47,344 nucleotides of DNA. Origin: a bacterium HR16. GTDB taxonomy: Bacteria > Armatimonadota > HRBIN16. The translations under genes and the position numbers were made by a program. The stretch covers positions 1-47,344 of the forward strand of contig BEHS01000003.1 in NCBI GenBank assembly GCA_002898895.1. Reading direction: 5' to 3'. The notes below the pieces were generated by a model. The model saw nothing but the letters and a program-made list of their open reading frames with translations, made no database searches and was not told the DNA's origin. Below, one piece after another: positions 27,931 to 33,399 of this stretch (its first letter is position 1; the number at the start of each line of letters is the position of its first letter).

Positions 27931-30819
27931 ATGCCTCAGGACAAGATTATCGTTCGCGGCGCGCGTCAGCATAACCTGAAAAACATTACCGTCGAAATCC
28001 CGCGCGATAAGCTGGTGGTCATCACCGGCATCTCGGGGTCGGGCAAGTCCAGTCTGGCGTTCGACACCATCTACGCCGAGGGTCAGCGACGGTATGTCGA
28101 GTCGCTTTCCGCCTACGCCAGGCAGTTCCTCGGTCAGATGGACAAGCCAGACGTGGACGACATCATCGGCCTCTCGCCGGCGGTTTCGATTGACCAGAAG
28201 TCCACCAGCAGAAACCCGCGCTCGACGGTAGCCACCGTCACCGAGATTTACGACCACCTGCGCCTGCTCTATGCCCGAATCGGCATCCCGCACTGCCCTC
28301 AGTGCGGGCGCGAAATCACCCAGCAGACGGTGGAACAGGTGGTGGACACCATCCTCGCCCTGCCGGAGGGCACGCGCCTGCAGATTCTCGCCCCCATCGT
28401 GCGCGGACGCAAAGGCGAATACCGCAAGGAGATGGAGGATGCCCGCAAGGCAGGCTACAACCGCCTGCGCGTGGACGGCGAACCGGTAGACCTCAGTGAA
28501 CAGCCCATCCCGACGCTTGACCGATATAAGATTCACCATATCGAGGTGGTGGTAGACCGTATCGTAGTGCGTGCGGGTATCGAGAAGCGGCTCGCCGACT
28601 CGGTAGAGACCGCCATGCGCATGGGACAGGGCGTGGTCATCGCGCAGATTGTGGACGGCGAGGAGCTGGTCTTTTCGGAGAACTTCGCCTGCGCGGAGTG
28701 CGGCATCAGCCTGCCGGAGATCGAGCCGCGCAGTTTCTCGTTCAACAGTCCATATGGGGCTTGTCCTGAATGTCACGGTTTGGGCTTCAAAACCGAGTTT
28801 GACCCCGCGCTCATCGTGCCTGACCCCAGCAAGAGCATCGCCGAGGGCGCGATAGAACCCTTCGCCGGTAAGGACGGCTTGATGCCCTACTACGAGGGGC
28901 TACTGCGCGGGGTAGCACAGAAACTGGGCTTCACCATCCACACACCCCTCAACCGACTGAACGAAAAGCAATGGCACGACCTCTTCTACGGCGTGGAAGG
29001 CAACGTCACCGTCACCTTCCGCAACCGCTGGGGACGCACCCGCTACTTCGACAGCGAGTTCGAAGGCATTATCGCCATGCTGCAGCGCCGTTACAACGAA
29101 ACAGAGTCCGAAAACGTACGCGAGTGGCTACAGCGGTACATGTCCGACAAACCCTGCCCCAAGTGCAAGGGGTTGCGTCTGAAGGACGAGAGTCTGGCTG
29201 TAACGGTAGGCGGATTAAACATCGCGCAGCTGACCGCGCTATCGGTGGAGGAGGCACAGAGGTTCTTCGACGAACTGCCTTTGCATCTCAGTGAGCGCCA
29301 ACGGCACATCGCTCACCAGTTGCTGCGCGAAATCCAGACGCGACTGGGCTTCTTGCTGGACGTAGGGCTGGGCTACCTTACTCTGGACCGTCCTGCAGCG
29401 ACGCTGGCAGGCGGCGAAGCGCAGCGCATCCGCCTCGCCACGCAAATCGGCAGTGGGCTGATGGGCGTGCTGTACATTCTGGACGAGCCCAGCATCGGCT
29501 TGCATCAGCGCGATAACCAGAAGCTGATTCATACCCTGTTGCACCTGCGCGACCTGGGCAATACGATTATCGTGGTGGAGCACGACGAGGAGACCATCCG
29601 TACCGCCGACCACATCATCGACATCGGTCCGGGTGCAGGAGAGCACGGCGGATATATTGTGGCGCAGGGCACGGTGGAGGATATTATCGCCTGCGAGCAG
29701 TCCATTACGGGGCAGTACCTCAGCGGTAAGCGACGGATTCCGGTGCCGCTCATCCGCAGGCAACCGGGCGACCGCTGGTTGACCATTCGCGGCGCGCGCC
29801 AGCATAACTTGAAGAACATCACCGTGCGCATCCCGCTGGGGCTGTTCGTGTGCGTGACGGGCGTTTCCGGCTCCGGCAAGTCCACGCTGATTCAGGAAAC
29901 CCTCTATCCGCGCCTGATGTATCACGTGTACGGCTCACACCCGCTGTGGGGCGAACACGACGGCGTGGACGGCATCGAATACATCGATAAAGTGGTAGAC
30001 ATCGACCAGTCGCCTATCGGGCGCACACCGCGATCGAACCCCGCTACTTACACGGGCGTGTTCGACATGATTCGGGAACTGTTCGCCAGCACGCAGGACG
30101 CACGGGTGCGCGGTTACAAGCCGGGGCGGTTCAGCTTCAACGTGAAAGGCGGACGTTGTGAGGCGTGCAGAGGCGACGGTATCATCAAGATAGAGATGCA
30201 CTTCCTGCCCGACGTGTACGTGCCCTGCGAGGTGTGTAAAGGCAAGCGTTACAACCGCGAAACGCTCGAAGTGAAGTATAAAGGCAAGTCCATCGCCGAT
30301 GTGCTGGATATGACGGTGGAAGAGGCGCTGGACTTCTTCAAAGCCATTCCACCCATTGCCCGCAAACTGCAGACCCTGCACGACGTGGGGCTGGACTACA
30401 TGAAGCTGGGGCAACCCGCTACTACCCTGTCGGGCGGTGAGGCGCAACGGGTGAAACTGGCTACCGAGCTGTCCAAGCGAGGCACGGGCAGGACGCTGTA
30501 CATTCTGGACGAGCCTACCACCGGTTTGCACTTCGCAGACATCGAGAAACTGCTCAACGTACTACACCGCCTGGTGGACAACGGCAACACGGTTATCGTG
30601 ATTGAGCATAATCTGGACGTGATTAAGACCGCCGACTGGATTATCGACCTCGGTCCTGAAGGGGGCGCAGAGGGCGGCTACGTGGTGGCAGAAGGCACAC
30701 CCGAGGATGTTGCGCAGGTAGAAGCGAGCTATACAGGACAGTTCCTGCGCAAAATGCTGGACGTGGATGGAAGGGCAAAAGGTTTAAACCACCATAATCC
30801 CACTTCCTGCTACCGGTGA
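27931..30819 (+). CDS. uvrA: Excinuclease ABC subunit A
   Basis: [10 protein letters not shown], two Walker A motifs ([18 protein letters not shown]), zinc fingers, LSGGEAQR. Confidence 0.98.
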
Positions 30820-33399
30820 GCATACGAACATCTCCGGCTCCAGGTTGCGCGGGGCGTAGTAGTGATCGGTCAGGGCGCGCTGCACCGCGTCGCAGGCGTC
30901 CTCGCGCACCAGCACCAGGATACAGCCACCCAACCCTGCCCCCAGTATCTGCGCCCCCAGCACACCCGGCACGCGCAACGCCACATCCACCATCCAGTCG
31001 ATTTCCGGTGTGCTACAGGCGTATGCGCCCGGCTGCCATACAAGGTCGGCGTCCGGGAGATTGTGCTCCGCTTGTTGGGCAAGATGTTGTAAGACGGTGT
31101 CAGAATAGTCCACCGCAAAGGGCTGGAAATCATCGCCGTCGGTGTTCCAGCGGGCAACACGGTCGCCGTCATGCGAACGGTTCATCCACTGCCCGAAAGT
31201 ATCGATGTGACCCTCGTGCAACAGCGCTGCGGTTCGGCGGCTGCGCTCACACTCTGCCAGCCCGAAAACCACCACCGGACGTATGGGATAGCGGTTCAGC
31301 TTCTCGTCGTGCGTGCTGAGGTAGGACATTATCCGTTCGGCAGGCAGCCGTTCCAGCAGGTGCTGGCGTTCCACAACCTCGGGCAGATGCGCAAGCAGGC
31401 GGTACAGCTCGGCGAGCGAGATGCCCAGTCGCCCGGTATTCACATCACGCAGGTGCTCGATGTACGGGGAGAGGTGCGGAAAGGTGTGTTTGAGCCATTC
31501 CCTGCCCAGATGATAACACGCTACCCGGTGGTTGAACTGGTCGCGCGCGCCGGCGGTCTTCTTCGCCTGCTGGTGCGAGTGGCACACCAGAAACCGATAC
31601 CCCTGCGGGAAAGGCACAGTGCCCACCACGCGGAAGGGGAAGAAGCTCATGGCGACTACCGCGTCTCGCCGCGCGAACTTCATCGCCGCGTGGTCGCCTG
31701 CCCCGCCGCGCGTGCCCACATACCACTCTGCCTCACCGCACAGGTCCACGAACTGCTCAGGAGGCAATTCAAAGCGGTTCAGATGCAGTAATGCCTCCAT
31801 CGTCGCGACTACCACCGCTGAAGAGGAGCTCAGTCCCGCACCGATGGGCACGTTGCCGTCGGCGGTCAGATTAAAACCCGGCAGCACGTAGTCGGCGAAA
31901 TGCGCTTGCAGGCGAGCGCAGGCGGCTTTCACGTATTGCGACCACTCACCGCGCGCGGCAGCAGCCGCCTCCAGTATCGGCGCGCTGTTCACGAACTCCA
32001 CCCACGCGCCCGGCTGATAGCCCGACAGCAAATCGTCCAGTGTAAACTCACAAGGCGGGAACGCCTGTGACCGAAGGTTCTGCAGCTGCACACGTCGGTC
32101 ATCGCGCAACCCGACCACCGCGTGCACGTCACGGTCGACGGCAATCATGTTGACGTGTCCGCCCTGGTGGTCGATGTGCCTGCCCATGATATTCACCCTG
32201 CCGGGTGCGCGTGCGATAACCACCTGCTGGTCGCCGAATCGCTGCAGATGCAGGGTGAGCAGTGACAGCAGACGTTCCCGCTTGCGTTCCACAATCGCTT
32301 CATCGCCGCCGTAGGTGTTGCGCAGATGGTTCAGGAAGGCATCATCGCGTGCCTCGATAGCACGCAGCCATTGACTGACCGTGCGCATACCCTGCGGCAG
32401 TTGCTGTACCTGCACCCGCCGACGGGAGAGGAGGTATTCCTCAATTGCCTGCAGTTCCTCCGGGGTGTTGAACGCCATCGCCTCTTCGGGGTAAGCGACA
32501 GGCACGGTGTGAATAACCGCCCCGCGCTGCGATAGCAGTGCGACGATGTCGGTGAGGTATTCCTCCCCCTGCGCGTTGTCTGCGCTCAGTTTTGCCAGCG
32601 CGTCGTACAGGACGGGCGCACGGAACAGGTAGACCGAGAGATTCGCCTCCTGCGCCTGCTCCACTTGCGAGAGGGGCAATACGCTGTTGCCCACACGGAC
32701 GCCGTCAAGAGGAGGAGTGCTTTCGGCAGACACCGGCTCACCGCGTTCTATCGCTTGCCACAGGTCGCCCAGCGCACGCGCCGCCTTTTTCTCCTGCGGA
32801 AAGGTTCTGACGACAAGGCGTCTGGCTTCTTCGGCGGGCAAGGGGGCAGAATGCGCCATCTGTCGCAGGGCGTGCAGAACCTGTGCCCGCGCCAGGTCAA
32901 ACACCTCCACAATAGCGCACACCTTACCCGTCGCATCGCGCACCACGCGCCCGGAGGTGGGAAAGTGCTCCACACTGCCTACTGCAAAAGCAAGGTCGCT
33001 TCGGGTGGAGTAGAAGGTATCTATCAAGCGAGCGAGGAACGCCTCTTCAATCACCTTGTCGCCTGCAACCACCAGCACGTCGCCTTCATAGCTCAGCGAC
33101 TGCAACAGGTCTGCCGCCACGCGGGTAGCATGACCCGTGCCACGCGGTTCCGGCTGGTGAGCGTAGAGGCGTTGCCCCGGCAGGTCCTTCAGCACTCCCA
33201 TAATGGCTTCCGCACCCTGTCCGACGACGACACAGTGCGTGTGAATCCCACAGCGCACGTACGACCCTACGGCGCGGGCAATAGCGGGCGTGCCAGCGAT
33301 GGGGAAACACACCTTCGGCAGGTGGGTTGCTTTCATGCGCGTGCCCCGCCCCGCCGCCAGTATCACCGCCACTATGGGATGCGAACGAGAGATGTTCAT
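30784..33399 (-). CDS. Fusion of a GlmU-type sugar nucleotidyltransferase and a GHMP (galactokinase-family) sugar kinase
   Basis: N-terminal [11 protein letters not shown]...[20 protein letters not shown]-terminal [35 protein letters not shown]. Confidence 0.88.

Follow-up and report, generated by a model that had tools for sequence, protein, structure and literature searches.

We analysed a gene of the hot-spring-type bacterium HR16 (Armatimonadota), carried on contig BEHS01000003.1 (assembly GCA_002898895.1) within a stretch of 47,344 nucleotides, hereafter the window. The gene is an intact open reading frame (ORF) of 871 amino acids (aa) on the minus strand, with its ATG at 33399 and its stop codon at 30784-30786, and it joins a GlmU-type nucleotidyltransferase (NT) to a full GHMP kinase of the GalK/GALK2 type. 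We propose, with a probability of about 85%, that this single polypeptide would lead from a free sugar to a UDP-sugar in two steps. The C-terminal kinase would use ATP to phosphorylate the anomeric hydroxyl of the free sugar, and the N-terminal domain would then combine the resulting sugar 1-phosphate with UTP, releasing pyrophosphate and a UDP-sugar for glycan synthesis. Both reactions would take place in the cytoplasm. The scheme is based on the identity of the two domains, on the conservation of their catalytic residues and on the occurrence of split, fused and partnered forms.

Relatives of the gene were examined at 59 loci from species-representative genomes, whose neighbouring genes were clustered all-against-all. 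No partner gene is universally conserved across these 59 loci. NT and kinase are adjacent separate genes in L141, and in L057 the NT ORF overlaps the kinase ORF. Two stand-alone kinases come from the clade sister to that of the fusions: L023 is flanked by a GalU-like NTP transferase (directly upstream) and a HAD phosphatase (directly downstream), and L035 adjoins a GalT/HIT-like DUF4922 protein. The kinase has been paired independently with three kinds of nucleotidyltransferase, and we regard this as the best evidence that its sugar 1-phosphate is bound for nucleotide activation.

Domain layout, catalytic residues and precedents

The features of the gene, in window coordinates and with the basis of each assignment, are listed from the N-terminus of the protein onwards.

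30784..33399, minus strand: whole ORF P0001 (871 aa + stop), predicted bifunctional enzyme; full-length homologues at 39-95% identity, AlphaFold2 (AF2) mean pLDDT 92.5
32410..33399, minus strand: predicted GlmU-type sugar-1-phosphate uridylyltransferase domain, aa 1-330, without acetyltransferase beta-helix; Pfam, NCBIfam, solved GlmU chains
33331..33360, minus strand: nucleotide-binding signature, aa 14-23, followed by K29 in LPKV; conservation
33127..33159, minus strand: aa 81-91, opposite GlmU QxEQLGTGHA, with Q82, G87 and T88 invariant; alignment
32653..32880, minus strand: insert of ~76 aa in the transferase fold, aa 174-249, a helical subdomain; gap in the GlmU alignment, AF2
32230..32409, minus strand: linker (aa 328-333) and helical N-terminal extension of the kinase module (aa ~338-390); AF2
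30787..32229, minus strand: predicted GalK/GALK2-type GHMP anomeric sugar kinase domain, aa 391-871; Pfam, match to 2a2c
32158..32184, minus strand: GRHIDHQGG, sugar-binding signature, aa 406-414; alignments, conservation
31816..31848, minus strand: GHMP motif II, phosphate-binding loop PxGxGLSSSSA, aa 518-528; Pfam, conservation
31690..31716, minus strand: GTRGGAGDH, aa 562-570 (GGAGDH being aa 565-570, 31690-31707); alignments, conservation
30922..30942, minus strand: GHMP motif III, GAGLGGC, aa 820-826; alignments, conservation

Pfam places NTP_transf_3 / NTP_transferase at aa 11-182, GalKase_gal_bdg (PF10509) at aa 384-430 (59.7 bits, cut-off 23.1), GHMP_kinases_N (PF00288) at aa 489-573 (61 bits, cut-off 22.3) and GHMP_kinases_C (PF08544) at aa 781-848 (45.4 bits, cut-off 21). 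No hexapeptide or acetyltransferase family is found among the Pfam matches of the 871-aa protein at E<=0.1. The N and C domains and motifs II and III are all present and conserved, which is what is expected of a protein belonging to the GHMP kinase superfamily, to which we assign the C-terminal half on these motifs. Among NCBIfam models the transferase domain is best matched by those of GlmU (138.9 bits; RmlA 44, GalU 29); the match stays far below the GlmU cut-off of 450 and covers profile positions ~2-160 and 160-244, that is, the N-terminal domain only. For the C-terminal part the nearest model is galactokinase TIGR00131, with 149.6 bits under a cut-off of 226.65. The fusion lies outside the curated thresholds of GalK and GlmU alike.

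GlmU is the best family match of aa 1-330, and its signature and pocket residues are conserved there, but it possesses an acetyltransferase beta-helix and has no counterpart of the 76-aa insert. Residues 11-173 and 250-326 of the fusion align to GlmU residues 15-172 and 176-251, which are contiguous in solved GlmU chains, so that the ~76 residues in between (aa 174-249) constitute an insertion. In the AF2 model, built from 76 family sequences (mean pLDDT 92.5, pTM 0.64), this insert consists of helices at 189-218 plus short strands (pLDDT 84-95), and two well-folded modules are connected by a low-confidence linker whose pLDDT at aa 328-333 falls below 50. For the kinase module, Foldseek ranked GALK2 (2a2c) first (E 6.9e-29, TM 0.81 on the target), ahead of the galactokinases of yeast and human. 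By sequence as well, its closest solved relative is 2a2c, the human N-acetylgalactosamine (GalNAc) kinase, with E 7.2e-32 and ~23-24% identity. The ESM Atlas returned generic GalK-like clusters only and no structure of the 871-aa protein. An earlier note, made from the letters of this DNA alone, had described the 871-aa ORF as a GlmU-type nucleotidyltransferase joined to a full GHMP kinase, with an internal insert and without the beta-helix; the domain searches agree with it on each of these points and add the minus strand, which it had left unstated.

In an alignment of 76 sequences sharing 39-88% identity with the window protein, K29, Q82, G87, T88, D114, E165, N253 and N311 are invariant in the transferase, and L14, A15, G17, G19, R21 and M22 of the nucleotide-binding signature, which includes GxGTRM, are conserved in at least 90% of sequences. 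Conserved in the kinase are R401, H408, D410, the PxGxGLSSSSA loop, D569 and GAGLGG; R407 is kept in at least 90% of sequences, and G406, H408, G413 and G414 are invariant. Asp569 lies opposite the catalytic Asp of GalK; PGR keeps its Arg and GD its Asp. The catalytic and binding roles that we give to these residues are presumed ones, taken over from GlmU and GalK structures; aa 81-91, with Q82, G87 and T88, presumably contact uracil and sugar. Both domains retain their catalytic residues, and an intact enzyme is predicted.

Routes from free sugar to nucleotide sugar on one polypeptide are rare, being represented by Fkp/FKGP, Leishmania enzymes and zebrafish DrGKUP, and such fusions are valued for chemoenzymatic synthesis and glycan labelling. 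In Fkp of Bacteroides fragilis, the precedent named in the earlier note, and in plant FKGP, as in our protein, a pyrophosphorylase comes first in the chain and a GHMP anomeric kinase follows; Fkp/FKGP is an L-fucokinase/GDP-L-fucose pyrophosphorylase leading from free sugar to NDP-sugar (PMC11982464, PMC6468028). Only the architecture is common, however: both halves of Fkp belong to other families, Fkp uses GTP where UTP is expected for the fusion, and the fusion kinase bears a galactokinase signature. No Fkp chain is among the 44 PDB sequence matches at E<=0.01, and the Fucokinase Pfam family is absent at E<=0.1. The note overlooked zebrafish DrGKUP, a characterised enzyme for a uronate in which the architecture is the same. 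DrGKUP consists of a bacterial-type N-terminal nucleotidyltransferase and a C-terminal glucuronokinase (a GHMP kinase), acts on a uronic acid and forms UDP-glucuronic acid with UTP, but it is eukaryotic, 619 aa long and built from other domain families; in the same paper the relatives of its transferase domain in bacteria and archaea are described as single-domain proteins (PMC3938481). Membership of our kinase in the glucuronokinase family is disfavoured by its galactokinase signature and by the reported lack of identity between glucuronokinase and plant galacturonic acid kinase.

Human GALK2 (2a2c / 2a2d) is the best kinase match; like the fusion kinase it is larger than classical GalK and has Phe in xFNxRV, yet it shares only ~23-24% identity, reads GEHIDY and GGGMDQ where the fusion has GRHIDH and GGAGDH, and carries no fused transferase. 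AmgK-MurU and NahK + GlmU are separate-protein systems in which an anomeric kinase is followed by a uridylyltransferase, acting on sugars of the N-acetylhexosamine (HexNAc) type. AmgK and NahK differ from the fusion in that they have the APH/protein-kinase-like fold, not the GHMP fold, and in that the proteins are separate. The kind of enzyme is already known from Fkp/FKGP and DrGKUP, and the predicted combination of a GalK/GALK2-type kinase with a GlmU-type domain is a new variant of it. As the earlier note had supposed, we found no characterised bacterial member in the full-text literature, although subscription-only papers and further supplements could contain one.

The sugar pocket, the kinase trees and the family

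In HMMER alignments GRHIDHQGG stands opposite GEHIDYCGY of GALK2 and GEHTDY of the P. furiosus galactokinase, and GGAGDH opposite GGGMDQ and CGILDQ of the same two proteins. The note had placed the first motif at 32158-32184, which is exact, and had read the second as a variant of CGxMDQ, with which the alignments agree. Compared with GalK and GALK2, four pocket residues are replaced: Glu by Arg407, Tyr by His411, Met by Gly568 and Gln by His570. Arg is found at 407 in 115 of the 120 homologues listed by the family search, P0001 included (the others being one Gln, one Lys and three in which the motif was undetected). Phe622 matches the Phe of GALK2 in xFNxRV; Tyr occupies this place in the canonical GalK of the same genome and in three of five other GalK-like outgroup rows, and Phe is found in the remaining two (L050, L059). 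The signature Glu is presumably the ligand of the galactose C6-OH, a role for which the open-access literature yielded no confirmation. Plant galacturonic acid kinase (GalAK) is an unfused GHMP anomeric kinase for a sugar with a C6 carboxylate; its signature Glu would be replaced by a small residue rather than by Arg, and the note gives GAHIDHQGG for it.

Two maximum-likelihood trees of the kinase domain, one of 57 rows (LG+C20 PMSF) and one of 74 rows (LG+G4), were obtained by quick search with SH-aLRT support only. Both recover, with full support, a clade of 50 and 68 rows, respectively, on a long stem of 0.82-1.19 changes per column. It is marked by the signature Hx[DE]H[RQ]GG + GGxGDH and stands apart from bacterial relatives of the GEHTDY/GSHTDY type and from the GalK of the same genome. 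On the 74-row tree one change suffices to account for Arg407, which is carried by 46/46 rows of its clade. Of the 42 rows called fused, 41 belong to this Arg407 clade, and the other one (L057) is a split pair in the sister clade; L143, scored as alone by tblastn, is fused according to ORF analysis. Four stand-alone kinases from Chthonomonadales are nested inside the Arg407 clade, and this position points to secondary loss or fission. The sister clade (22 rows) has no fused protein, all its kinase ORFs being separate. Position 407 is V, T, M or P there, and Arg is present at 412 in 16/22 rows. The deep fused branches have both Arg407 and Arg412, and the 30-row crown clade that includes the window has Arg407 and Gln412. 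Arginine at one of two neighbouring positions (407/412) is the rule, and we infer a conserved positive charge that would face the region of the pocket where GalK holds C6.

The family is large and rich in thermophiles; its sugar pocket is unusual, and certain lineages have the gene as part of exopolysaccharide (EPS) clusters. A word-indexed search in which 8000 candidates were scored gave 324 homologues at E<=0.001, and the 120 that were listed are nearly all fusions of 780-990 aa, from Armatimonadota, Chloroflexota, KSB1 and others. A HMMER scan of 1.84 billion 50%-identity representatives retrieved 514 proteins at E<=1e-30. Among the 150 best of these representatives the motif was detected in 120 and undetected in 30; Arg407 is present in 65/66 fused proteins with a detectable motif, while the 54 proteins without a detectable NT domain comprise 35 with Arg and 19 with another residue at 407. 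A match at E<=1e-20 exists in 124/301 Armatimonadota genomes, that of the window included, a count in which fused proteins, stand-alone proteins and weaker matches at the level of GalK are mixed. The gene is present in 10/12 other genomes of the window's own genus. Stand-alone kinases measure ~500-570 aa and occur in Chthonomonadales (including Chthonomonas calidirosea), Omnitrophota, Poribacteria, Caldithrix and two archaeal metagenome-assembled genomes (MAGs); their homology starts at ~residue 335-340, so the N-terminal extension of the kinase module is kept. Sixteen representatives of odd length were also scanned with Pfam. Five of them (P0346, P0369 of ~1310 aa, P0337, P0343 of ~730 aa, and P0347) are family kinases with long N- or C-terminal additions (~770, 200, 390 aa), in which no Pfam family was seen at E<=1e-5, the kinase families being the only ones detected; most of the others simply carry the usual NT domain.

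Gene neighbourhoods and the likely substrate

The genome of the window, 93.6% complete, encodes elsewhere a canonical GlmU (557.5 bits, cut-off 366.85) and a canonical GalK (297.9 bits, cut-off 226.65; G000:C166, L087 1486-2652). A role of the fusion as stand-in for a missing GlmU or GalK was considered and ruled out, both being encoded in the genome. Since both are present, the fusion would be a paralogue with its own task and with a specificity other than that of the housekeeping GalK and GlmU. The substrate is not galactose. The same genome contains two Ugd-like dehydrogenases, one UDP-ManNAc-dehydrogenase-like protein and one WbpP-like epimerase, and on contig C100 (L088 716-2640, minus strand) an unfused 390-aa GHMP kinase (motifs GEHQDY and GGMMDH) that has a 251-aa NTP transferase directly after it and a URO-D-like gene upstream.

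Among the relatives, a fused subclade of 12 rows (SH-aLRT 99), ~41-45% identical to the window kinase, has a distinctive setting. In 9/12 rows an epimerase of ~310 aa, of the short-chain dehydrogenase/reductase (SDR) type, lies <=1.1 kb downstream on the same strand. In L041, L058, L132, L134, L135, L138, L139 and the split pair L141 the epimerases are 66-100% identical to that of L134, and the one of L037 is only 38% identical to it. As for the rest of the subclade, the contig of L140 ends 860 bp past the gene, and L133 and L040 have no epimerase. Around the subclade genes we found GT4 and GT2 glycosyltransferases, Polysacc_synt_3 flippases, Wza-like Poly_export/SLBB proteins and PMT_2, together with a GNAT (Acetyltransf_6), a DegT aminotransferase and an Asn-synthase-like protein; judged by this gene content, the loci are EPS clusters. 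The L134 epimerase scores 288.5 bits against the capsule-biosynthesis epimerase 10ke, 284 against WbpP, 267 against WbgU and 140 against 6zl6, which we take to be the UDP-glucuronic acid 4-epimerase of Bacillus cereus. For two epimerases of the subclade type the best NCBIfam model is TviC (UDP-GlcNAcA 4-epimerase), with 253 and 269 bits under a cut-off of 760. At a further locus, L042 from a Clostridiaceae MAG, wecB (235.9 bits, above cut-off), an SDR gene and a TviB-like UDP-GlcNAc 6-dehydrogenase (501.9 bits, cut-off 592) precede the fusion on one strand. The WbpP-like epimerase of the window's own genome (G000:C58:281-1198) is 57% identical to the L134 epimerase, with one TAG in the match at the contig start, which may be a gene boundary or the sign of a broken gene.

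The earlier note had proposed that the Arg of GRHIDHQGG binds a C6 carboxylate and that galacturonic acid (GalA) or an N-acetylhexosaminuronate is the substrate. A functional proposal of this kind is plausible, with the emphasis shifted towards an acidic HexNAc. We tentatively favour, at somewhat less than even odds, a substrate with a C6 carboxylate, namely a HexNAc-uronate such as N-acetylgalactosaminuronic acid (GalNAcA) or N-acetylglucosaminuronic acid (GlcNAcA) or, less specifically, GalA or glucuronic acid (GlcA). The ring would be GalNAc- or N-acetylglucosamine (GlcNAc)-like or galacto-configured, and Arg407 (Arg412 in the sister clade), His411 and His570 would replace the Glu, Tyr and Gln that line the C6/C4 side of the GalK pocket. 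A HexNAc-like ring with an anionic C6 is the most coherent choice because of the pocket changes, the HexNAc-1-P-like transferase and the WbpP/TviC-like and TviB-like neighbours; the same epimerase and dehydrogenase neighbours lead us to prefer an N-acetylhexosaminuronate to plain GalA. An acid or HexNAc setting is also in keeping with the Ugd-like and UDP-ManNAc-dehydrogenase-like proteins and the WbpP-like epimerase of the window's genome and with the LarA-family epimerases beside three sister-clade kinases. In the deeper subclade the product would feed the WbpP/TviC-type C4-epimerase and the GT4 transferases of the EPS cluster; in the window's own clade, where the gene stands alone, salvage or recycling is more likely. 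The acidic sugar gains from an arginine that defines a clade and from the neighbours of certain relatives, and loses in that this context is missing from the crown clade of the window. The homologue neighbourhoods to which the note had directed attention gave an EPS and epimerase context in the 12-row subclade and nothing conserved in the window's own clade.

Several observations weigh against a C6 carboxylate. The canonical GalK of the same genome reads GNHTDY, with Asn, so the Glu position is not strict in true galactokinases, and other GalK-like outgroups of the 74-row tree carry Ser or Glu there. That Arg407 points into the sugar site is a supposition, and V, T or M at position 407 of the sister clade would also fit a 6-deoxy or otherwise non-polar C6. 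Neighbours of the acid or HexNAc type occur in 0/30 crown-clade rows, window included; such a context is confined to the deeper subclade and the one Clostridiaceae locus and is never met in the crown clade. Crown-clade neighbours, which are scattered, lean if at all to neutral sugars (GH127, GH29 fucosidase, AGE-family epimerase) and further include a BNR sialidase-like protein and an NagD-like HAD. The subclade kin are not independent, L058 and L138 being near-identical. Over the stretches that were covered, the epimerase-bearing EPS clusters showed no dehydrogenase, so that any uronate used there would have to come from elsewhere. WbpP-type epimerases, finally, also use neutral UDP-GlcNAc/GalNAc.

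A serious rival, which we consider somewhat less likely than the acidic sugar, is the same chemistry on a neutral substrate, GalNAc or GlcNAc. The protein would then be a bacterial GALK2 joined to a UDP-HexNAc pyrophosphorylase, salvaging HexNAc released by glycosidases, with Arg407 hydrogen-bonded to the C6-OH or merely structural. The human GalNAc kinase is the best solved relative of the kinase in both sequence and fold and shares Phe622 in xFNxRV (though the outgroups L050 and L059 have this Phe too), the transferase is nearest to the GlcNAc-1-P uridylyltransferase of GlmU with the aligned residues E154, N169 and N227 kept (in what we take to be the E. coli numbering), and the epimerases found as neighbours belong to the WbpP/WbgU UDP-HexNAc type. 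GH123, the beta-N-acetylgalactosaminidase family, is encoded beside L056, a relative with the NT alone, and in the vicinity of L144, a deep fused form of ~805 aa; a gene of the N-acylglucosamine 2-epimerase (AGE) family is directly downstream in L008; JGI labels many homologues 'N-acetylgalactosamine kinase'. GALK2 itself, however, retains the Glu, Tyr, Met and Gln that the clade has replaced, and the length of the fully supported stem (0.82-1.19 changes per column) speaks for a change of substrate. For UDP-GlcNAc, moreover, GlmU is already available to the organism, and a kinase plus NT would be redundant where an EPS cluster needs just UDP-GalNAc from the UDP-GlcNAc pool. The replacement of Met by Gly568 and of Gln by His570, which enlarges and alters the C4 side of the pocket, would also suit another modified sugar, such as a 6-deoxy, amino or 4-substituted HexNAc, or a hexose 6-phosphate in a HddA/GmhB/HddC-like route, with the phosphate held by Arg407 and then taken off by a HAD phosphatase ahead of nucleotidyl transfer. 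Small or hydrophobic V/T/M at 407 in the sister clade, the DegT aminotransferase and GNAT genes of the EPS clusters and the HAD phosphatases directly downstream of the L023 kinase and the L039 fusion are compatible with such sugars. We nevertheless hold them to be improbable: HAD neighbours are limited to these two loci, the conserved GlmU-like pocket residues suggest an ordinary HexNAc-like ring, and no kinase of the GalK fold is known to us that accepts a 6-phosphosugar.

Much less probable still is MurNAc (N-acetylmuramic acid) recycling by a GHMP-type analogue of AmgK-MurU in which the Arg binds the lactyl carboxylate. MurNAc is indeed an anionic HexNAc, and the MurNAc-alpha-1-P uridylyltransferase 8hhd is a weak match of the transferase domain (E 3.2e-5), but GlmU models far outscore MurU, and the 3-O-lactyl group would fall at the conserved Asp410, whose aligned Asp in GalK presumably binds the ring hydroxyls. 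The sister clade is also present in archaea (L027, L028), which have no murein, and no recurring peptidoglycan-recycling genes adjoin the gene in the loci examined. As for a protein with one dead domain, either a sensor or regulator like Gal3p or an enzyme with a single activity, we give it hardly any credence. Gal3p, a GalK-fold sensor, does figure among the structural matches, but across the 76 aligned sequences (39-88% identity) the catalytic motifs show little or no variation in either domain, and split forms keep the NT and kinase genes adjacent. AbGHMP (PDB 9ulx), considered as a possible orthologue, was discarded, since it is a weaker match than GALK2 for the window protein and for a sister-clade kinase.

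Should the substrate be an acidic HexNAc or a hexuronate, UDP-uronic sugars, whose preparation is difficult, would become directly accessible through the enzyme, and the nucleotide-sugar metabolism of bacteria would gain a further branch for salvage or biosynthesis. With plain GalNAc or GlcNAc it would still be a compact UDP-HexNAc synthase, of no surprise to a specialist. A bolder version of the carboxylate reading, which we offer as speculation and think unlikely in full, is that the Arg407 clade comprises the first bacterial uronate-type anomeric kinases, forming UDP-GalNAcA/UDP-GlcNAcA or UDP-GalA/GlcA from the free sugar in several little-studied phyla. In Armatimonadota they would then provide a dehydrogenase-independent EPS route together with the WbpP/TviC-type epimerase and GT4, and the Arg would have moved from 412 to 407 as a carboxylate clamp.

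The surroundings of the gene and minor observations

The uvrA gene converges on the 3' end of the fusion gene with a 36-bp overlap, and gatB and a pfkB kinase lie farther upstream. No Rfam match and no promoter-like site was found upstream of the fusion gene, and terminator-like sites there are at shuffle level. Between the fusion gene and gatB, five ORFs (303, 275, 82, 218 and 181 aa) occupy 33871-37099 on the minus strand, in a segment with a GC content of 0.51 against ~0.60 in its surroundings. The four of 303, 275, 218 and 181 aa have no Pfam match at E<=0.001, and PADLOC gave 0 matches for all five. The block looks like an insertion, because the 88%-identical relative L145 has a single 103-aa ORF in its place.

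Three sister-clade kinases (L022, L026 and L032) adjoin LarA-family nickel-dependent 2-hydroxyacid epimerases. The URO-D-like gene seen on contig C100 of the window's genome recurs as the divergent neighbour of the fusion in L001 (95% identical), and a gene of the same cluster occupies this place in L005. In L126 (G237:C136, ~4800-14200) a fused homologue, 54% identical in its kinase part, is located amid Mu-like genes, between those of the portal and the major head protein (gpT), with an Amidase_3 gene downstream; it seems to be a metabolic gene inside a prophage head module. On the other side of the fusion gene in the window, just upstream of uvrA, a DNA methylase (N6_N4_Mtase) is followed by an overlapping type II restriction endonuclease of the TdeIII type (25777-27847, plus strand), and the pair looks like a restriction-modification system.

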